IMG/VR virus record: IMGVR_UViG_3300028591_000078
Span: 1 to 64,000 of that record
Length of the DNA: 64,000 bases
Strand: one strand, 5' to 3'
Source of the DNA: a virus
Lineage: Duplodnaviria; Caudoviricetes
Both the position numbers and the translations under genes were made by a program. Below, piece by piece: positions 1-23,151 of this stretch. Position 1 is the stretch's first letter. Every line of letters starts with the position of its first letter. Under the pieces are notes generated by a model, which ran no database searches, was not told the DNA's origin, and was given only the letters and a program-made list of their open reading frames with translations.

Positions 1-2136
1 TGTTTGCAGCACTTGAATCAGCATTTGAATCTCATTCATGGTGAGGTTCCACTGGTATGTACAGGATATGAGGATGAGTTTGCTAAGTATTCATCTTCAT
101 ATAAAGTAACAGATGCAGAGTATAGAGTTGTAAAGAAGATCCAGAAGTTTAGCAAGCATCCAGGACTTCATTACTTTACTATACTTGAAAATACAGAGAC
201 TGGTGAACTGTCTCTGTTAGAAAGAGTTTCATATGTCCATACTACAGAAGCATTCGGATATATGATGAATAATGAAGGTATAGATTCCTATAATGAAGGA
301 ACCTATATACCTGCTGGTACAATATTAGAGAAGAGTACATCTTATGACCCTTATGGTGGTCATTGTGATGGTATAAATCTCTTAACCACATATATGGCAC
401 TTGGAGATACTACTGAAGACCCGATAGTAATCTCTGAGTCTGCTGCAAAGAAACTTGCATCTCCTACAATAAAAGAGATAAGCATTATCATTAATGATAA
501 TGATGTGCTTCTCAATCTGTATGGAGATGATGGCGAGAAGACAGAACGTGTTATGGGTACAAATGAACTCGCTAACTACGTTTCTAATGGATATAAAACT
601 TTCCCTGATATTGGAGAAGATGTTAAGGATGGTATTGTATGTGCATTCAGAAAAGAGAAGAAAGATGAATCTCTCTTTACTCAGACAGCATCTAGATTAC
701 AGGATATAATGATGTCTGATGAAAAGATCACCAGCTCTGGTACTATTGTAGATATAAATGTATATTGCAATAATCCTGATGCATTACAGCAGTCCTATTA
801 TAATGGACAGATAAGGGAATACTATAATGAGAATATAAGATTCTGTCGAGAGATAGTATCTGTTCTTGATAACTTCCCACTCAAAAAGAAGACCATTGAA
901 CTCCAGAGAATCTATAATATAAGTAAAAGAATACTCAATGGTGAACAGTTCACATTCGATAGACCTTTCTCTAACCTCTGTATAGTGCTTACAGTCTTTG
1001 AAGTAAATGAATTCAGCGAAGGTGATAAGCTTTCTAATAGATATGGAGGTAAGGGTGTTGTCTCTAGAATAAGAAAAGATGAGTATATGCCGATGTTAGA
1101 CAATGGTGAAAGAGTAGAATGCATATTCAACTCTAGTACTTGTGTTAACAGAGAAAATCCGTCTCAGCTTATAGAGACTTCTATAACCCATATAGGTAAT
1201 CGTATAGTAGACTTCTTCAATACTAATACACTTGATGTAGGAGAAATGATCGATATCTATGAAAGATTCCTTAAGATCGTAAATCCTGAACAGTGTGAGT
1301 ATATTATAAATACACTTGAAAATCTTGAAGAGCCTGATCTGATAGAGTTTTTTGGATCTATTATAACTGATAAAGGTATAAGAGTATCTATGAATCCTAT
1401 CTCTAACTCGCTTGATATAGATATAATAGCAAAGCTTTATGAAGAATTCCCTTGGGCTAAGCAGTATACTCTTATGGTTCCGAGAGTAAATAGCTGTGGA
1501 GAACTTGAGTATATCAAAGCTCATAGACCTTTAGTTGCTGGAAGACAGTATATCTATAGATTAAAGCAGTATGCAGAAGAGAAGTTTTCTGTAACTTCGC
1601 TGTCTGCTACTAATATAAAGAATGAGAATTCTAGATCTAAAGCAAATAAATCATATAGAGCACCGTTTACTAAGACTCCTGTAAGATGGGGAGAAATGGA
1701 AACTGGTGATCTGCTCCACTTAGGGCCTGAGTTTATAGCTCAGAACCTTATGCTATATTCTACTTCACCGAATGCAAGAAGACTTACTGAACAGCTTCTT
1801 ACTGGTGATGCATTCAATATAGATATAAAGCTCGATTCTAATTCTAAAAGTAGAAGTGTTGAGATTCTCAATGCTTATCTTAAGACTATGGGATTAAGAC
1901 TCATATTTATTAAGAAACCTAAGAAGAAGAAACCTGCCTTTATAAGGAATCCATTCATTCATTTCATAGAGGATAGACGTCCTGCATATCAGGTTCATCC
2001 GTTTATCCATATGCATCCTGAAGAGACAGCTGCTCCAGATTACTTTGAGAAGCTGTATAAGAAGGAGCACTCTGGTATTATTCATCCTTTCATACGGAAT
2101 CCGTTCATACACTTTACAGAGGATGAGAAAAAATAA
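1..2136 (+). CDS. rpoB: Phage multisubunit RNA polymerase beta subunit, C-terminal half (probably non-virion RNAP); 5'-truncated by window edge
   Basis: Beta motifs EDPIVISES, EGDKLSNRYGGKGVVS, YIYRLKQ, RWGEMET, LNAYLKTMGLRL. The frame is open from the window start. Confidence 0.92.
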   Translation, partial: CLQHLNQHLNLIHGEVPLVCTGYEDEFAKYSSSYKVTDAEYRVVKKIQKFSKHPGLHYFTILENTETGELSLLERVSYVHTTEAFGYMMNNEGIDSYNEGTYIPAGTILEKSTSYDPYGGHCDGINLLTTYMALGDTTEDPIVISESAAKKLASPTIKEISIIINDNDVLLNLYGDDGEKTERVMGTNELANYVSNGYKTFPDIGEDVKDGIVCAFRKEKKDESLFTQTASRLQDIMMSDEKITSSGTIVDINVYCNNPDALQQSYYNGQIREYYNENIRFCREIVSVLDNFPLKKKTIELQRIYNISKRILNGEQFTFDRPFSNLCIVLTVFEVNEFSEGDKLSNRYGGKGVVSRIRKDEYMPMLDNGERVECIFNSSTCVNRENPSQLIETSITHIGNRIVDFFNTNTLDVGEMIDIYERFLKIVNPEQCEYIINTLENLEEPDLIEFFGSIITDKGIRVSMNPISNSLDIDIIAKLYEEFPWAKQYTLMVPRVNSCGELEYIKAHRPLVAGRQYIYRLKQYAEEKFSVTSLSATNIKNENSRSKANKSYRAPFTKTPVRWGEMETGDLLHLGPEFIAQNLMLYSTSPNARRLTEQLLTGDAFNIDIKLDSNSKSRSVEILNAYLKTMGLRLIFIKKPKKKKPAFIRNPFIHFIEDRRPAYQVHPFIHMHPEETAAPDYFEKLYKKEHSGIIHPFIRNPFIHFTEDEKK

Positions 2137-2206
2137 TACTAGTTATATATCATTATAGAGATAGGACTTCGGTTCTATCTCTATTAATGAAGAAAGAAGG
2201 TGTATT

Positions 2207-4513
2207 ATGGTAGACTTACAGAAACTTAGAGCAGATTTACTGAGCCCAGAGTTCAAGTTATCTGATCTAAAACTTAAGACTACTTCAGAACTAAATCTCA
2301 TAGCAATGGATCTATTACAGAAACCAGATCCTTTGGATGCTAGAGATGTAAATGACTTGGGTCTATTGCTGAATATCTGTAATATCTTATATAATAATAC
2401 AGATATGGACCCATTACCTATAGAAGATGGTGTATATGATCTTCTATTAGAGAAGTATAAGAAATATAATCCCAACTTCCAAGTTGGAGCAGAACCTGTA
2501 CAGTATACTGAAACAGTAGGTAATATAGTATCTACAGGTCCTGAGATTATAAATCCATTCATTCATCCAGATGAAAAGTTTGTAGATCCTATCTTTGAGG
2601 ATAGGTTATTCAATATGCCTATACCTACTAAGAGAGATTTTACAATTAATCCATTCATCCATACAGATCTTTTAAGTAAAGGACTTAGAAATACAGCTCA
2701 TAATTATCCTGAGTTGGTCGGTACTCTTAATAAGTGCAAGTTTGTAGCAAACTATCAAGCACAAGATCAAGGAGTATTCGATGATCCTAAAGTACAGATT
2801 CTTGAAAGAGACTTCTTCCAACCTGTTATAGAGGCTGGGATATTAGATCCTAATAAAGAATTCAGTATGGTGCTAGAACTTAAATATGATGGTATATCTG
2901 TAGAAGCAGATATCCTGAATGGTGAAGTTGTAGGTGCTAGGAGTAGAGGAGATACTGGTAATGATGAAGCCACGGATCTTACTCCAATACTTCAAGGATA
3001 TAAGTTTAAACATGCTACAGATCCTAGATTACCAGACTATGAGTTTGGTATGAAGTTCGAAGCAGTTATAACTTATGATAATATAGAACGTATGAGACGA
3101 GAGCTAGGTAAAGATTATAAGAATGCTAGAAATGCAATCATAGGAATCTTTGGTAGTTCTAATGCAAGAATGTACAGAGATTATATAACACTTGTCCCAT
3201 TAGCTACATCTCTTCATGGTATGAATAGAGTTGAAGAGTTAGAATTTATGAACAAGTATTATCATTCTGGTGAGTATTGTAGATATACAGTAGTCACTGG
3301 AAACTTCTTAGAAGTAATGTATATGATAAAGCGATTCGTAGATGAAGCAGAGTATGTAAGAGGAGTACTTCCTATCATGTATGATGGTGTAGTAGTATCA
3401 TTCTTAGACCCTGTAATCAGAGAGAAACTTGGTAGAAAGAATAGTGTAAATCAGTATTCTGCTGCTGTCAAGTTTAATACTATGAAGAAGCTTACTCGAT
3501 TCATAGGATATACTTATACAGTCGGACAGACTGGATCTATAACTCCTATGATAAACTATACTCCTATTGAATTCTATGGAATGGTTCAGACTAAATCCTC
3601 TGGTCATTCTTATAAGAGATTCAAAGAATTAGGTCTTAGAGTTGGTGATGTATTGATGGCAGAATATGTAAATGATGTCATGACCTATATCACTAAACCA
3701 GACATAGAAGAGAACCTTAGGAATGAGGCTCCTGTAGTAGAATTTATAACCCATTGTCCTGAATGTGGTCATGTTCTAGTAGAGTCTGATTCTGGTAAAT
3801 CTATCTATTGTCCTAATCCTAATTGTAAGGGTAGAAAGATAGCAAGAATGACTGCAATGCTTAAGAAGATCAACTTTAAAGGTGTTGCAGAAGAAACAGT
3901 TAAACAGATAGATATCTATACCTTGAGAGAATTCTTAGAGATGGATTATGATTATCTCAAAGATCATGGTGTAGGTCCTGAGTTTAGCGCTAATATTATA
4001 GAGCAGATTAAAGCATTTAAGGCTTCTAGTATCTATGATTATAGAATCATTGGAGCTCTTGGATTTACTAATCTTGCTGAAGCTGCATGGAAAATCGTTC
4101 TTCAGAACTTTAGCCTTGAGCAGGTTATGAGTTTTGATGATGATGATCTAAGAATAGCTCTGATGCATCTTAAAGGTCTTGGACCTATAAGTGTACAGAC
4201 TATTGTAAATGAACGTAAATGGTTTGCGGACGATCTGATCTATATAAGTAAGATGCCTAATGTAATAGTATCTTTAGGTCAGAGTGTTACAGGAAAGCAT
4301 ATTAGATTTAGTGGCTGCAGAGACCATGATATGATGACTCATTTACAACAGATGGGTCATGATTGTACAGAAGGATCTGTAACTAGAGAGACTGATATAC
4401 TTCTAGTACCAGCATTAGGATTTACTAGCACTAAGACTGCTAAGTTACCACCTAATGCTATAATAGTCCCAATAGGTGAGTTTAGAGCACATATGGAGGA
4501 TTACTTGAAATAA
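2207..4513 (+). CDS. ligA: NAD-dependent DNA ligase
   Basis: DGVYDLL (domain Ia), ELKYDG adenylation motif, SRGD, YDGVVV, AAVKF, VGQTG, CPECG..CPNPNC zinc finger, HhH and BRCT-like C-terminus; RBS aagaaggtg. Confidence 0.95.
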   Translation: MVDLQKLRADLLSPEFKLSDLKLKTTSELNLIAMDLLQKPDPLDARDVNDLGLLLNICNILYNNTDMDPLPIEDGVYDLLLEKYKKYNPNFQVGAEPVQYTETVGNIVSTGPEIINPFIHPDEKFVDPIFEDRLFNMPIPTKRDFTINPFIHTDLLSKGLRNTAHNYPELVGTLNKCKFVANYQAQDQGVFDDPKVQILERDFFQPVIEAGILDPNKEFSMVLELKYDGISVEADILNGEVVGARSRGDTGNDEATDLTPILQGYKFKHATDPRLPDYEFGMKFEAVITYDNIERMRRELGKDYKNARNAIIGIFGSSNARMYRDYITLVPLATSLHGMNRVEELEFMNKYYHSGEYCRYTVVTGNFLEVMYMIKRFVDEAEYVRGVLPIMYDGVVVSFLDPVIREKLGRKNSVNQYSAAVKFNTMKKLTRFIGYTYTVGQTGSITPMINYTPIEFYGMVQTKSSGHSYKRFKELGLRVGDVLMAEYVNDVMTYITKPDIEENLRNEAPVVEFITHCPECGHVLVESDSGKSIYCPNPNCKGRKIARMTAMLKKINFKGVAEETVKQIDIYTLREFLEMDYDYLKDHGVGPEFSANIIEQIKAFKASSIYDYRIIGALGFTNLAEAAWKIVLQNFSLEQVMSFDDDDLRIALMHLKGLGPISVQTIVNERKWFADDLIYISKMPNVIVSLGQSVTGKHIRFSGCRDHDMMTHLQQMGHDCTEGSVTRETDILLVPALGFTSTKTAKLPPNAIIVPIGEFRAHMEDYLK

Positions 4514-6050: not shown

Positions 6051-7781
6051 ATGGTACAAGACGAATTAATAGCGAAATTCAATGATGAGAAGAGACCTAA
6101 GTTCAATCCCATATTCTTTCATAGAGATGAAATGGATATAGTAGAAGAACTTAAAAAGGTTATTCTCTCAGCACAGAGGGATAAATTCTTCACGATCAAA
6201 GTAGAAAGCTTTAGAGTAATCTCAGATTATGCTGAAGTATATAATACTTTGTATCAGTATGAAGAGCTCTATAGTAAGAACCGTAGAGCTAAAGACAATG
6301 AATACTCTTATATCAATCTTAGAGACTCTGATATAATCTTATTAGAGGTGAACTATTTTATCTCTATAAAGGATCAGTCAGAGCATACAACAGTATTGAT
6401 CCAGATCCCTAGAGTTATAGATAAGTATTACTTCAAGATTGCAGGTAATATGTATTCTGCACTCTATCAGATCGTAGATGCTTCGACCTATAACAATGCT
6501 ACTTCATCTAGTAAGAAGCATAAGATAGTATTGAAGACAATCTTTACTCCGATCAATATCTATAGAAATACCAAGAAGGCTATGAAGTCTTTCAATGGAG
6601 ATACAGTCAAGTGCTTATATTATGATATCAATGTATTCACTAAGACAGTTCCGATTATGAAGTACTTCTTTGCTAGGTTTGGCTTCTATGGAGCAATAAA
6701 CTTTATGGGTTTAAGTTATATCTCAGTAACCAATTATCCTATGGAAGAGAAGGATGAAACCTATTACTCTTTTATGAAGAATAATATCTGGATAAACTGC
6801 CCTAGGTTTTTGTATGATAATAATACTGTAGTTCAGAGTATAATATATACAATCTATAAGGCTATCATGAAAGATACGTCTTATCAAGATTTGTATCTTA
6901 CAGAATTCTGGGCTAAGAGTTTGGGCATGGAGTTCAATAATTCTACTCCTGAGAAGGGGTATGCAGTACTTGACTCTATAGAGAATGTATATGATATACA
7001 GACTAAGTATGTCTTACATTTACCAGAAGAACAGAAAGCAGATATATACTGTGTACTTAGATGGATGATATCAGAATTTGCAGAACTTCGTAAGAAGGAC
7101 AATACAGATCTGACAACCAAAAGAATTAGGTATGCAGAGTATCTTGCCAGCTTATATGCTATGAAGTTAACTCAGGGAATTCATAGAGTCTCAGACATAG
7201 CTAATAGGGCCGAAATAAAGACCATTAAACGAGCTATAGAGATAAATCCTGGTTATCTTGTACAAGCAATCGCGAACTGTAAGCTGGTAAACTATAAGAA
7301 TCTCGTAAATGATCTCGATGCAGTGAGTGTACTAAAGTATTCTTTCAAAGGTATCTCTGGTATAGGAGAGAAAGGATCTTCTGCAGTACCTCAGCAGTTT
7401 AAGATGGTTAATCCATCTCATATAGGAAGAGTTGATATGGATTCTTCCTCAGCATCTGATCCTGGAATGAGTGGAGCTCTGTGTCCTCTTCAGAGGATAT
7501 ATGGAGAATCTATATCATTCTCAGAGTTTGAAGAACCTAATACTTGGCAGGAAGAACTCGCTAAGACTTTAACACAATTTAGAGAGATGACAGGTAGAAA
7601 AGAACTGTTTATAGCAGAAGAAGTACTTCTTAGTAAGCCTCATAATGATGAGGTAGAGAAACTCGAAGAAGATATTCAGGCTGCTAGAAGAATAATCAGA
7701 CCATTCATTCATACTGATGAAGGTGAATATGGTGGATTACCTCTTGAAGGTTCAGGTTTAATTCAGCTTATTACAGAGTAA
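6051..7781 (+). CDS. rpoB: Phage RNA polymerase beta subunit, N-terminal half (probably non-virion RNAP)
   Basis: IQIPRVIDKYYFKIAGNMYSALYQI (beta N-terminal motif) and VNPSHIGRVDMDSSSASDPGMSG (equivalent of VHPTHYGRICPIETPEG). Confidence 0.85.
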   Translation: MVQDELIAKFNDEKRPKFNPIFFHRDEMDIVEELKKVILSAQRDKFFTIKVESFRVISDYAEVYNTLYQYEELYSKNRRAKDNEYSYINLRDSDIILLEVNYFISIKDQSEHTTVLIQIPRVIDKYYFKIAGNMYSALYQIVDASTYNNATSSSKKHKIVLKTIFTPINIYRNTKKAMKSFNGDTVKCLYYDINVFTKTVPIMKYFFARFGFYGAINFMGLSYISVTNYPMEEKDETYYSFMKNNIWINCPRFLYDNNTVVQSIIYTIYKAIMKDTSYQDLYLTEFWAKSLGMEFNNSTPEKGYAVLDSIENVYDIQTKYVLHLPEEQKADIYCVLRWMISEFAELRKKDNTDLTTKRIRYAEYLASLYAMKLTQGIHRVSDIANRAEIKTIKRAIEINPGYLVQAIANCKLVNYKNLVNDLDAVSVLKYSFKGISGIGEKGSSAVPQQFKMVNPSHIGRVDMDSSSASDPGMSGALCPLQRIYGESISFSEFEEPNTWQEELAKTLTQFREMTGRKELFIAEEVLLSKPHNDEVEKLEEDIQAARRIIRPFIHTDEGEYGGLPLEGSGLIQLITE

Positions 7782-7853: not shown

Positions 7854-8216
7854 ATGTCTAAATTCTATAATCCTAAGATGGCTGAAGATGCTTGTATCAA
7901 GCCATTTATTCATTATAGTGAAGGTCAATGTCCTGCATGTAGTGGGGCGTGTTATATCTTAGAGAATGAAATTGGTTCATCTCTGTTATCTGATAATGGA
8001 TTACCAGTAACTTACGATGTTGAGTTTTATTCTGTAAGAGCTTACTGTGTACAATGTAATAGGACATTTCCTGTTATAAAGAAAGGTATGCAGTTCGAAG
8101 TTGTAACAGATGAAAATCTCTTCAAAAGACTTAATAGAGTTCTGAGAGGAATAACAAGTTATGATGAAGATGATTCTGTTGCAGAAGACAATCCATTTGT
8201 AAAAGGAAAGGAATAA
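7854..8216 (+). CDS. Small zinc-ribbon protein
   Basis: CPAC...CVQC; RBS aggagg. Confidence 0.7.
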   Translation: MSKFYNPKMAEDACIKPFIHYSEGQCPACSGACYILENEIGSSLLSDNGLPVTYDVEFYSVRAYCVQCNRTFPVIKKGMQFEVVTDENLFKRLNRVLRGITSYDEDDSVAEDNPFVKGKE

Positions 8217-9110: not shown

Positions 9111-9389
9111 GTGAGCACAATGCAGATAATAAGTCCATTCATCCATACGCCTTGCTATTGTGAGGCATGTGGAGGTGAAACTGTAATGCTAATGACTGAT
9201 TCAGATAGAGCCATTAACTACCCCAGTATAATAGAAAATAATGATATGATGGAGTTGAATAGAATACTCAATATGTCTTGTATCAGTTATATGATGTGTA
9301 AGAAGTGTAATACTAAATATATGATAGATTGGACAGATAGACTACCCAAACCATTATATAATCTTACACCAGCATTAACTATATTATAA
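9111..9389 (+). CDS. Small zinc-ribbon protein (start may be ATG at 9120)
   Basis: CEAC...CKKC. Confidence 0.65.
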   Translation: MSTMQIISPFIHTPCYCEACGGETVMLMTDSDRAINYPSIIENNDMMELNRILNMSCISYMMCKKCNTKYMIDWTDRLPKPLYNLTPALTIL

Positions 9390-9730: not shown

Positions 9731-9782
9731 TTGAGATTTTATTTTTTATCGTTAGGGTAACTTTTAATAAGAGGTGATCGTA

Positions 9783-12464
9783 ATGAGATTAAAAATGGTC
9801 GAATTAGAGAACTATGGTGGCATTATGAATGGTATGGGATTGTCTAAAATCTCTATAGATTTCACAAAATGTAACCATAGTATGCTCGTAATCAAAGGTG
9901 ATAATGGATCAGGAAAGAGTACACTCTTCAAAGCATTAAAACCTCTTCCTGATGATAGTGATTCTTTTATACAAGGGCTCCCTGCTAAGAAGATTATATC
10001 TTATATGGGACCTATGGGTGAAATATATACACTTACTTTTATACATGATGTAAAAACTAATGGCGATAGAATGAATGCTAAAGGATATATAACTAAAGAT
10101 ATCGGAGCAGGACCTGTGGAGTTGAACCCCACAGGAAATATTACATCTTGCAAGGATATTATATATTCTGAGTTTAAGCTTGATCCTAATTTTGTAGCAT
10201 TATCTCAGTTATCTACAGATGATAGAGGTCTTGCTGATAAGAAGCCTGCAGAGAGAAAGAAGTTTGTAAACTCTATAATCTCTTCTGTAGAAGTATATAA
10301 TAATATCTATAAGACTCTTGCTAAGAGATCTTCAATCTTTAAATCTATGATAAATAGTATAGTCTCTAAGATTGATACTATTGGAGATATCAATGAGCTT
10401 AATCCTATGCTTTCCAGTATAGAAAGGACTATAGTTAACTATGAGGCTAGCAGAGATGAGTTCAATAGAACCATTGCTAAGAATGAAAGTATTATAGAAA
10501 GTCTTAATGGTCATGATAGTTTGGCTAGAAAGGTTGAATTAGAGACTAGATTAAGAGAAGTTGAATCTACTATAAGTAATCTTACAGGTCATATACATGA
10601 AGTTATACCTGCTGATACTACTCCAGAGGAACATTTGGAGTTATTAAAGCTTAAATATAGAGATATGAGACATCATAGAGAAGACTCTTGCTTCAAACTT
10701 ATGGAAATAGAGCAATCTATCAAGGATACTAATACTAAATTACAGGACAAACAAGCTAAACTTGATAGCTTTACATCTGATACCAACTATGATCAGTTAG
10801 AATCTGCTATAGAGAATGTAAAGAAAAGTATTAAAGAATGCGAAGCAGTCTTTGCTGAGATGGGTTTAGAGGGTGATGTGATACTTAGTAAAGATGAGTA
10901 TATCATAGGTATCCATACTCTTGAACAGATTAAGGAAGCTGTAGAAGCTTTCCAAGATGCTTTTACTGATGGTGTAGTAGATCTGATAGTAAAGAATATA
11001 GATTCTCCTAACCCTGACATAGAGTCTTTGAATAATTGCATAGAGCAGTCTAAGTATAAGATCAAGGCTTTAGAGGTAGAACTTACCGAGTCTATAGTTT
11101 ATGCTAAGAGAGTAGCTATATTAAACTCTAGGCCTAAAGAGTGTAAACTTGATAACTGTTTCTTTATAGCAGATGCTATTGAAGCTGAGAAGCATCTTAA
11201 AGAGAATCCTCCTGTAAAGATAGATGAAGCTATAAAGTTAGAAAAAGAAAATCTTCATGAGCTTGAGTTAGAGTTGTCTACTAAATTACAGATAATAGAT
11301 GGTAAGAATATGCTTAATAGGATATTTAGGATGATAGAGAGTGCTAGACCTATACTTGCTAAACTTCCTGTTAAAGATATCTTACTTGAGAAATCTCAGT
11401 TTGTAATAAGAATAATCTCTAGAGTTCCTCTTAAAGAGATTGATGTCTTGAAGATGTATCTTCAGAAGGCTAATGTATTTGAAGATTATGCATATGCTAA
11501 GAATATGCTTACTAGTCTTGAAGCTGAGTATAAGATATATCTGTCTAAGAAGGATATTATAGATACTCTTGTTGATGATGTAAATAAGCTTAATGGTGAT
11601 CTTAAAGGATTACTCCAAGCCCAGTTTAAAGTAAAAGATACTATACTTCATTATAATGATATGGAGCTTGATATGAGTAATGATATAAAAAATGTTGAAA
11701 ATCTTATATCTACTTGTGTAAAATCTTTGAATGAAAGTATAGCTCTTAAAGAGAAACTTACAACAGAGTATGATAATATCTCGAAGAATATGGTTGCTGT
11801 TACTAATGCAGCTAGTATGATAGAAGTAACTAGACAGAATCTTGCCAATGTTCTTACTAATCTGAATGAGAAGTATAAAGAAAGAGATACTGTAAAGCAT
11901 AAGGTAGAAATGCTTAAAGAGTATGAGAAAGAACTTGAAGACTATAAAGCATCTTATACTAAGATAGAGACTATCAAGTATTACTCGTCTCCTACTACTG
12001 GTATTCAGACAGTATTTATGGAGCTCTATATGAATAAGATCATACAGTTAGCTAATAGACTATTAGCTATGATGTTTGATGGAGTGTTCCACTTAGATCC
12101 ATTTATCATTAATGAGAATGAGTTCAGAATACCTTGCTCAGGTGGAAATCTTCCTCATGATGATATATCTAGTATGAGTAGTTCTCAGGTAGCTTGTATA
12201 TCTATGATATTAAGTTTCGCGCTCTTATTCCAATCATCTAGTAAGCTTAATATACTTAAGCTTGATGAGATAGATGGAGCTCTTGATTCTTATAATCGTA
12301 GAAACTTTATAATCATGCTTGATCAGATGCTTGAAGTATTAGACTGTCAGCAATGTATCATTATATCTCATAATGATGAGATTAACCTTGATAACTGTGA
12401 TGTTATACTGCTTAAGCATTCCAATATCGAGCCTATTGTGGGAAATATCATTTGGAAATACTGA
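9783..12464 (+). CDS. sbcC: SbcC/Rad50-like SMC-family ATPase
   Basis: Walker A GDNGSGKS, long coiled coils, central CKLDNC hook-like motif, signature MSSSQ, Walker B LKLDEIDGALD, IISH. Confidence 0.9.
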   Translation: MRLKMVELENYGGIMNGMGLSKISIDFTKCNHSMLVIKGDNGSGKSTLFKALKPLPDDSDSFIQGLPAKKIISYMGPMGEIYTLTFIHDVKTNGDRMNAKGYITKDIGAGPVELNPTGNITSCKDIIYSEFKLDPNFVALSQLSTDDRGLADKKPAERKKFVNSIISSVEVYNNIYKTLAKRSSIFKSMINSIVSKIDTIGDINELNPMLSSIERTIVNYEASRDEFNRTIAKNESIIESLNGHDSLARKVELETRLREVESTISNLTGHIHEVIPADTTPEEHLELLKLKYRDMRHHREDSCFKLMEIEQSIKDTNTKLQDKQAKLDSFTSDTNYDQLESAIENVKKSIKECEAVFAEMGLEGDVILSKDEYIIGIHTLEQIKEAVEAFQDAFTDGVVDLIVKNIDSPNPDIESLNNCIEQSKYKIKALEVELTESIVYAKRVAILNSRPKECKLDNCFFIADAIEAEKHLKENPPVKIDEAIKLEKENLHELELELSTKLQIIDGKNMLNRIFRMIESARPILAKLPVKDILLEKSQFVIRIISRVPLKEIDVLKMYLQKANVFEDYAYAKNMLTSLEAEYKIYLSKKDIIDTLVDDVNKLNGDLKGLLQAQFKVKDTILHYNDMELDMSNDIKNVENLISTCVKSLNESIALKEKLTTEYDNISKNMVAVTNAASMIEVTRQNLANVLTNLNEKYKERDTVKHKVEMLKEYEKELEDYKASYTKIETIKYYSSPTTGIQTVFMELYMNKIIQLANRLLAMMFDGVFHLDPFIINENEFRIPCSGGNLPHDDISSMSSSQVACISMILSFALLFQSSSKLNILKLDEIDGALDSYNRRNFIIMLDQMLEVLDCQQCIIISHNDEINLDNCDVILLKHSNIEPIVGNIIWKY

Positions 12465-22293: not shown

Positions 22294-22401
22294 CACCATT
22301 CGCCTCCTAGGGATGATATATAATAAAAAGGATAGTCGGTGCAAGAGCACCGGCCTTCCTTTTGTTTAGTCGAACATATATGTAAGAAAGTAGGTGAGTA
22401 T

Positions 22402-23151
22402 ATGCGCGACTTTGATCAGGTAGTCACAGCAGACAAGAATACCAATACTCAGATACTTATATCATCAGATATTCCGATGTACTCTGTAAATGACTACGAT
22501 CTTTATGATGAAAAAGATAGAAAGAAATATATAGAAGACGTTAAGAGAGATGCTAGAAGTAGCTATGAATATCATGCTATGGTAGCATTCCTTAAAGAAA
22601 ATATGGATATGAGACGATGCTCTTTCTTAGAGAATGTCGAGAACTATGGTAATGGATGTAAAGTTAAAATAGAACTTCATCATCATCCATTTACTATAGA
22701 TGATATCATTCATATTGTATTAGAAAAAAGAATACAGATGCATGAACCACTCGATGTTGAACTTACCTCTAAGGAAGTAATGTATTTACATTATAATCTT
22801 ATGGTAGGTTTAATACCATTGTCTCAGACTGCACATGAAGCAGTACATAATAACTATATATTCATTCCTAATGAGAAAGTGTATGGTAATTATAAGAGGT
22901 TTGTAAATCTATATTATAACTTCATAGATCCTGAACTACTTGACAAGTTTGATAGACTTGAAGAAATAGGAGATCAGGATAATACTGCTCATTATACAGT
23001 ATTCGAACAGAATAGAATCTATATAATTCCTGAAGGTGAATATAAACAGCCTGATCTGAAGGAGTTACAATCTACTTTACAGACTAGGCTGGATAATCTT
23101 AGAAATGAAGATACTAAGGTTATAATTAATCCTTTCATACACTTAGAATAA
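22402..23151 (+). CDS. HNH-like nuclease-fold protein
   Basis: RRCSF..KIELHHHPF...LIPLSQTAHEAVH; start ATG 22402 after aggtga and an AACA-N6-TAA motif at 22373. Confidence 0.55.
   Translation: MRDFDQVVTADKNTNTQILISSDIPMYSVNDYDLYDEKDRKKYIEDVKRDARSSYEYHAMVAFLKENMDMRRCSFLENVENYGNGCKVKIELHHHPFTIDDIIHIVLEKRIQMHEPLDVELTSKEVMYLHYNLMVGLIPLSQTAHEAVHNNYIFIPNEKVYGNYKRFVNLYYNFIDPELLDKFDRLEEIGDQDNTAHYTVFEQNRIYIIPEGEYKQPDLKELQSTLQTRLDNLRNEDTKVIINPFIHLE

Follow-up and report, generated by a model that had tools for sequence, protein, structure and literature searches.

What would an RNA polymerase gain from a repetitive peptide arm at the end of one of its catalytic subunits? The question is raised by the first gene in a 64,000-nucleotide stretch of DNA from an uncultured gut phage of the Caudoviricetes (hereafter the window, which is positions 1 to 64,000 and thus the start of the 238,365-bp IMG/VR record IMGVR_UViG_3300028591_000078, with 34.7% G+C). 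This gene encodes the β-C subunit of a predicted AR9-type non-virion RNA polymerase (nvRNAP), and it ends in an appendage built around PFIH motifs that an earlier interpretation from the DNA letters alone (the sequence-only reading) took for a multivalent tail with high avidity for a PFIH receptor. We find that the tail holds several complete copies of a short tag that recurs across the phage's DNA- and RNA-handling proteins, and we give a probability of roughly 55% to the reading in which it is a disordered multivalent arm that docks the late RNA polymerase on a putative clamp-fold protein of 217 residues encoded elsewhere in the same genome.

By homology, the open reading frame (ORF) at 1..2136 (+ strand) is assigned to the β-C subunit of an AR9-type nvRNAP, in line with the non-virion class first given to it. 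Its best solved relative is chain C of the AR9 enzyme (PDB 7S00; E 7.6e-72 over query residues 2–636), and the homology covers the catalytic core, including Rpb2 domain 6 (Pfam Rpb2_6, PF00562; E 1e-13). The β subunit is split in the same genome as it is in AR9, with a separate β-N gene (6051–7781; 7S00 chain c, E 7e-58) and β′ parts, among them one at genome 94848–96983 on the − strand (7S00 chain D, E 2e-46). The β-C gene itself is broken by the arbitrary start of the contig: the ORF represents the C-terminal 710 residues of a 756-residue protein whose first 46 codons lie at genome 238100–238365, and window bases 1–5 differ from the true upstream sequence. The last 126 nucleotides of the record (238240–238365) duplicate window positions 6–131, so the assembly is circular or permuted. 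Once joined, the ORF is identical to the database homologue P0001 at 747 of 756 residues; a megablast search of the first 6 kb of the window against cultured phages returned no match.

The conserved end of β-C (...LNAYLKTMGLRL) has its last codon at 1900–1902 and is followed by 77 extra residues (1903–2133) and a stop codon at 2134–2136, so that the extension of roughly 75 residues described by the sequence-only reading stands as described and where it was placed. In order, the tail consists of a lysine run (at about 1912–1932, also seen before), AFIR-NPFIH-F followed by acidic residues, V-H-PFIH-M-H-P-E-E, a helix-prone PDYFEKLYKK and PFIR-NPFIH-F followed again by acidic residues. The proline codons of the three PFIH motifs lie at 1951, 1999 and 2101, and the half-units AFIR and PFIR are placed at 1936 and 2086. 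The gene is thus divided as follows:

1..1902, + strand: core of nvRNAP β-C, truncated by the contig start (match to 7S00 chain C; Pfam Rpb2_6).
1903..1935, + strand: lysine-rich linker of the F-x-K-x-P-K-K type, with which the tail starts in all relatives (tails of 120 homologues and 80 loci).
1933..1971, + strand: tag 1, a degenerate AFIR half-unit and then a full NPFIH with acidic residues, forming a double unit of period 5 (14.5 bits).
1987..2025, + strand: tag 2, a single V-H-PFIH unit and then H-P-E-E; this central single unit is kept in relatives (15.3 bits).
2041..2070, + strand: short helix PDYFEKLYKK, P-[DN]-E-x-F-D-x-x-Y in relatives (residues 680–689 as modelled by AlphaFold2).
2077..2127, + strand: tag 3, a PFIR half-unit and then a full NPFIH with acidic residues, a second double unit (24.7 bits, the highest score of any tag in the genome).

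The bit scores come from a position-specific scoring matrix (PSSM) trained on 20 tag instances that all lie outside β-C, with the consensus h-I-x-N-P-F-x-H-h-D/E. The second-best of 69,405 background (non-tag) positions reaches 8.4 bits, and both half-units score below zero. By this measure there are three complete tags in the tail, and a degenerate half-copy stands before two of them, which explains the four to five PFIH-type motifs that had been counted. The duplicated FIRNPFIHF unit is real: the two double units agree at 11 of their 16 residues and at 32 of 48 bases, and because the 16 differing bases are mostly synonymous, the copies are old and kept at the protein level rather than the product of a recent DNA duplication. 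Spacers of 16 residues (tag 1 to tag 2) and 34 residues including the helix (tag 2 to tag 3) separate the full tags.

Nothing comparable is found at the end of the cultured relatives. The alignment to AR9 β-C extends to residue 636 of the 710 in our ORF, about 75 residues before its stop codon, and to residue 649 of the 665 in the AR9 chain; the near-full matches that tblastn gives in cultured phages (PBS1, AR9, Staphylococcus S6/SA1, phiR1-37 and phiKZ-like phages), 68 in number, all end at about residues 633–635. Of the five cultured C-termini that we read, four reach the conserved end and continue for 9–55 mostly acidic residues, with neither lysine run nor repeats; the fifth, the annotated Listeria LPJP1 gene, ends before the conserved end and is uninformative for the tail. 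AR9 itself shares with our phage a homologous core (about 32% identity), a split β and an adjoining NAD-ligase gene, whereas its β-C stops about 16–20 residues past the conserved end in a short acidic stretch. Judged from these alignments, no characterised enzyme has such a tail, which is thus an addition, as the term 'appended' had implied.

Uncultured relatives tell a different story. Among 1,475 database proteins that match β-C at E ≤ 1e-10, the tail is present in all of the best 120 (44–99% identity), with a length of 49–118 residues (median 76), and it is readable, at up to 158 residues, in 76 of 80 IMG/VR loci (three gave no tail in our script and one match was too weak). Its layout is constant in all 120 homologues and in nearly all of the 80 loci: an F-x-K-x-P-K-K linker comes first, then a double unit of period 5 and a single unit, and the P-[DN]-E-x-F-D-x-x-Y helix separates these from another double unit. 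What varies by lineage is the sequence of the unit, which is PFIH here and PMxF, PIxF, PFTx, GMxY, PVxF, AVxF, KLFx, [IV]M[CA]x[IK]V or others elsewhere; even close relatives (58–65% β-C identity) differ, with PFIH, PIIH and PFIK. At least four copies of one pattern occur in 64 of the 120 tails compared to 16 of 120 shuffled ones, and a period-5 doublet in 102 compared to 46. We also looked for a tail that relatives keep without the motif, as would be expected of a folded inter-subunit element; instead, the relatives keep the tail, each with the motif of its own lineage.

Those motifs are not confined to the tail. In each lineage examined, the tail unit is also the tag found in a loop of the ligase (at about residues 115–170), at the C-terminus of β-N and at the N-termini of two small zinc-finger proteins, and it recurs two to three times at the C-terminus of the exonuclease half of the family-B DNA polymerase (PolB-exo) of the same genomes. 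The co-varying patterns are PF.H, PM.F, PFT., GM.Y, P[VI].F, PI.F and KPF[TI]R, and a cross-matrix of pattern by locus is enriched on its diagonal for the information-rich ones. These comparisons used IMG/VR loci at 35–52% identity, as the closest relatives (P0002–P0006, 58–80% identity) come without genomic context. Since the tail unit matches each phage's own tags, we read the tail as several tandem copies of a docking tag that is private to the phage and co-evolves. An H-P-[DE]-E-x-F-D stretch and the helix after the central unit (2020–2070 in the window) are constant in lineages whose tags differ, and a similar H-P-D-E-K-F follows the first ligase tag (2567–2590); this invariant stretch, or the central helix, may form a second contact that does not change with the tag.

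In the genome at hand, the 227 predicted proteins contain 17 instances of PF[IV]H and 19 of NPFxH, where shuffled sequences lead one to expect 0.25 and 0.12. About 27 tag instances are spread over some 20 proteins, and most of them lie no more than 40 residues from a terminus or in a loop insertion. The bearers include the NAD-ligase (twice), both PolB halves, a DnaB-like helicase, a superfamily 2 helicase (three times at the C-terminus), a Metallophos nuclease (genome 191209–192372), an HNH endonuclease, three nvRNAP subunits and several small proteins, nearly always at an end, while none of the predicted virion proteins carries the tag. Among the polymerase subunits, β-N has an 83-residue extension past its aligned end, in which the RPFIH noted by the sequence-only reading is indeed found, and the β′ part terminates in a 42-residue extension with DPFIH. 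The endonuclease is of the HNH/NUMOD4 homing type (genome 119989–120993) and has its tag at the N-terminus; selfish elements seem to have adopted the docking code of the phage. Tags that lie in the window outside β-C are:

2555..2662, + strand: the NAD-dependent DNA ligase (gene 2207–4513) has an inserted loop with two INPFIH tags; the loop of relatives carries their own lineage tag.
7701..7712, + strand: RPFIH tag in the 83-residue C-terminal extension of β-N (gene 6051–7781).
7902..7913, + strand: KPFIH tag at the N-terminus of a 120-residue zinc-finger-like protein (7854–8216); orthologues have their own lineage tag in the same place.
9135..9146, + strand: SPFIH tag at the N-terminus of a 92-residue cysteine-rich protein (9111–9389), from the motif match and relatives.
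23131..23142, + strand: NPFIH tag at the C-terminus of a 270-residue protein of unassigned function (22339–23151, phrog_12252), from the motif match.

Which protein would read such a tag? Proteins with a clamp fold are the textbook binders of short peptides carried by polymerases, ligases and nucleases, and a candidate lies directly behind one of the tag bearers. The last 40 residues of PolB-exo carry two tags, and the ATG of the next ORF (genome 81033–81686, outside the window; 217 residues) lies 28 nucleotides before the PolB-exo stop, so that the two genes overlap. This ORF has no Pfam and no PHROG match; a word-based search returned 3 homologues and a full HMMER search 163 representatives of about 200 residues. 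Modelled by AlphaFold2 with 115 homologues, the protein has a predicted local distance difference test (pLDDT) score of 92.8 and a predicted template modelling score (pTM) of 0.88, and consists of two similar α/β domains. In a VIA-align structural search of 48,161 chains, its top match is T4 gp45 bound to a ligase peptide (6DRT_A; Z 9.6 over 178 residues, root-mean-square deviation 4.8). The next 37 are beta clamps, PCNAs, 9-1-1 subunits and herpesvirus processivity factors, so that ranks 1–38 are all clamps or processivity factors, and past rank 38 the matches are partial, unrelated and below Z 5. Clamps also make up nearly all of the matches listed by Foldseek (top 50 ranks).

The distribution of this family follows that of the tail. 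It was detected in 27 of the 30 tail-bearing relatives checked, and the other three have, at the same place after PolB-exo, an ORF of 205–209 residues with the family's C-terminal signature, so that all 30 have either a family member or an orthologue by position. Our searches did not detect it in AR9, Staphylococcus SA1, phiR1-37, Listeria LPJP1 or Fusobacterium JD-Fnp4, where an empty search answer proves little; the four of these five that have a readable β-C end are also tail-less. In two relatives (G009 and G011; loci L136 and L138), the PolB-exo gene is split by about 380 nucleotides between two in-frame pieces, in the manner of an intron or intein, and the clamp-like ORF still follows the last piece. 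Taken together, the predicted fold and the synteny make the 217-residue protein the most likely reader of the tag.

Other ORFs were considered for this role and set aside. The 327-residue ORF after the polymerase half of PolB (100370–101353) encodes a radical SAM protein that shares about 74% identity with bacterial proteins, and it looks like a recently acquired auxiliary gene. The RNase H ORF (139902–140603, 233 residues) is too short to carry a clamp domain in the manner of the Chimalliviridae protein Rhc, and the 349-residue ORF upstream of PolB-exo (77857–78906) belongs to no family, with the ESM Atlas giving only unnamed viral clusters.

If the 217-residue protein is read as a gp45-like clamp, the tail would be a floppy docking arm on the catalytic β-C, with three full tags, or five units counting half-copies, of the same mark that is borne by some 20 proteins that handle DNA and RNA. 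Docking on the clamp would keep the RNA polymerase on phage DNA that is being replicated or is loaded with the clamp. As three weak sites in a row, the tags would give avidity or rebinding, or would allow one polymerase to bind an oligomeric clamp at several sites; the spacers are in principle long enough to span neighbouring sites of an oligomeric ring, going by the general geometry of such rings. With those of β-N and β′, the assembled polymerase would bear five or six tags. The placement of the tail is plausible because the C-terminus of bacterial-type β lies near the flap and RNA-exit side, where gp33 bridges the T4-modified RNA polymerase to gp45. We infer from all this that the tags bind the clamp, that the clamp encircles DNA and that this couples transcription to replication.

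The nearest precedent for such an arrangement is the gp45 system of T4 and RB69. In T4, the C-terminal tails of gp33 and gp55 tether the host RNA polymerase to gp45. As in that system, where the peptide is found in the gp43 C-tail, the LDFLF loop of the ligase and the gp33 and gp55 C-tails, one short hydrophobic peptide lies at ends or in loops of polymerase, ligase and transcription proteins, and the predicted reader is a two-domain clamp-fold protein of about 220 residues. The ligase motif is in both cases in an internal loop, and in T4 it binds gp45 with a dissociation constant of about 10 μM, three peptides per trimer and no cooperativity, a motif that gp33 shares (PMC6212786). If the docking holds, the RNA polymerase would here too be linked to a clamp for late transcription. 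Unlike in T4, however, the tags are on catalytic polymerase subunits (three on β-C, others on β-N and a β′ part) instead of sigma or co-activator adaptors, they are arranged in tandem, and their sequence is unrelated to LDFLF and different in each lineage; also, no clamp loader is seen.

A second precedent is Rhc of the Chimalliviridae, an RNase H with a clamp-derived domain that binds DNAP-C and pulls down nvRNAP subunits (bioRxiv 10.64898/2026.10.01.755736), and which is likewise a clamp-derived accessory of a split family-B DNA polymerase in a related group of jumbo phages thought to be clamp-less. In our phage, in contrast, RNase H is a separate protein, Rhc has no described peptide tags, and a comparison of the clamp-fold family (A3) with phiKZ Rhc (gp155) by hhalign gave a probability of 0.2, with no sequence similarity. 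The PIP box of PCNA and the QL[SD]LF motif of the beta clamp are also short linear motifs that many clients share in a 'toolbelt' and that a clamp-fold pocket reads, although those are conserved across domains of life, whereas the tag here is private to each lineage and co-evolves fast. By analogy with these systems, ours is likely a clamp toolbelt to which the RNA polymerase is tethered as in T4.

The likeness to a repetitive RNA polymerase C-terminal domain (CTD) that had been suggested at the outset turns out to be a loose one. The tail and the CTD of RNA polymerase II are both repetitive, disordered C-terminal appendages of a catalytic polymerase subunit that recruit proteins, as proposed here for the tail. 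The tail, however, has three full and two half-units (3–5 units of period 5, where tandem) compared to 26–52 heptads, lacks a phospho-acceptor pattern of serine, threonine and tyrosine, stands on a homologue of the second-largest subunit and probably serves as a ligand for one hub, not as a platform on which many factors land. A closer parallel is found in the tails by which T4 gp33 and gp55 bind gp45. As for the sequence-only reading as a whole, its observation is confirmed and its interpretation partly supported: a multi-copy array of a tag common to DNA and RNA enzymes, co-varying in relatives, is what we find, and the receptor it called for has a predicted candidate.

Several results weigh against the docking proposal. 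In an AlphaFold2 model of β-C built from a 40-sequence alignment, the core is well modelled to residue 520 and the tail has a pLDDT of 40–55, with two short helices (residues 661–664 and 680–689) and no placement against the core, which fits a disordered arm. This is supportive and not decisive, because the conserved core residues 522–636, which make the β′ contacts in the AR9 complex, also have low pLDDT in this monomer model, so that the value of the tail alone is no proof of disorder. The VIA-align scores of the clamp matches (Z 8–10) are only moderately above the noise level stated for the tool (Z 7–8), and support from Foldseek is weak, with a best E of 6e-4 and TM scores of 0.35–0.44. 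The tag is unlike the known clamp motifs LDFLF, QL[SD]LF and the PIP box Qxx[LIM]xx[FY][FY]. A clamp loader was not found, as PF13177 had no match and the sole PF00004 match is weak and lies in a superfamily 1 helicase; this could be because the loader is divergent or because the factor, like UL42/UL44, needs none. The 217-residue protein is slightly acidic (20 lysines and arginines compared to 23 aspartates and glutamates), and since its helices are not obviously basic, formation of a ring around DNA is unproven; it may act as a monomeric, loader-independent processivity factor like herpesvirus UL42.

The most serious competitor accepts that the tail is an array of docking tags and gives it another reader in the phage, such as a scaffold of the replication factory or a hub like the single-stranded DNA-binding protein. 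We think this unlikely, with some reservation: the tag evidence is neutral about the receptor, the missing loader and the unfamiliar motif count in its favour, and our family searches covered only about a third of the 227 ORFs. Yet the clamp-fold ORF is the only candidate whose fold is known to bind peptides of polymerases, ligases and RNA polymerase cofactors, and it is translationally coupled to a polymerase gene that ends in tags, with a distribution that tracks the tail. A host protein as the target, be it the host beta clamp or another host hub, is far less probable. Short hydrophobic end peptides are typical of beta-clamp ligands, but the pocket of the bacterial clamp and its QL[SD]LF motif are broadly conserved, while the tag already differs among the close relatives named above and changes entirely in other lineages, and the phage encodes a clamp-fold protein of its own.

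Two further explanations do without docking on the clamp. The units could pair with themselves, strand to strand, and so build a condensate, or they could form an assembly element between the subunits of the split polymerase; three nvRNAP subunits are tagged at their ends, several clients are multivalent (two- or threefold), and the conserved double units and the central helix, which does not vary, point to something more than motifs on a string. The AR9 enzyme, however, assembles without such tails, the tag is also found on unrelated enzymes, and AlphaFold2 leaves the tail away from the core, all of which makes this quite improbable. About as little credit goes to the idea that the tags direct proteins into a compartment like the phage nucleus, with several copies on the polymerase for efficient import. 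Every protein with the tag works on nucleic acids, even the selfish HNH endonucleases, virion proteins are untagged, and the genome has a gene for a tubulin/FtsZ-like GTPase (234172–235371; PF00091, E 1e-6, below the curated cut-off). On the other side, phiKZ gp54 found no chimallin homologue in this genome (in a single-sequence search, which is a weak test), we know of no linear import signal in the Chimalliviridae, and tandem tags at a polymerase C-terminus beside a clamp-fold gene are better explained by docking on the clamp; AR9-like phages are, moreover, reported to lack chimallin (PMC13282480).

Around the gene, some features stand apart from these arguments. Between the β-C stop and the ligase start, window positions 2150–2190 can form a stable hairpin with a UUCG loop and 18 predicted pairs (−21.5 kcal/mol for a 70-nucleotide segment, z −3.7); it has no T-run and is thus not a classic intrinsic terminator, and no terminator of the sigma-70 type follows the β-C gene. 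Further on, the 896-residue ORF at 9774–12464 belongs to the SMC_N/AAA families (an ATPase like SbcC/Rad50) and not to RNA polymerases, and is untagged, unlike the Metallophos nuclease.

Full-text literature searches found no paper on such tags, or on a clamp, in AR9-like phages, a group that a comparative study describes as being without a classical sliding clamp (PMC7824862). New here are the anatomy of the β-C tail, with its three true tags, five-unit layout and absence from cultured relatives, the clamp fold predicted in this genome and the positional conservation of its gene in 30 of 30 relatives. In its broadest form, the proposal is that a clade of uncultured AR9-like jumbo phages of the gut and rumen has a hidden gp45-like clamp to which late RNA polymerase is wired directly through a three-tag β tail, coupling late transcription to clamp-loaded DNA without a sigma or co-activator adaptor, with tag and pocket forming a private code that insulates each phage from co-infecting relatives; put together, these claims are tentative, and we would not bet on all of them at once.

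If the tail does dock the late RNA polymerase on a phage clamp, the coupling of late transcription to replication known from T4 would have been invented a second time and independently, here as a built-in part of the polymerase and in the very group said to lack a classical clamp. The fast-changing tag would offer a natural series of matched peptide–pocket pairs in which to study the co-evolution of an interaction code, and the tandem arrangement a simple test of avidity in the competition for a clamp toolbelt. For annotation, it suggests a rule: the lineage tag, read off the β-C tail, can be used to flag the replication and transcription proteins of each of these phages, selfish elements included.

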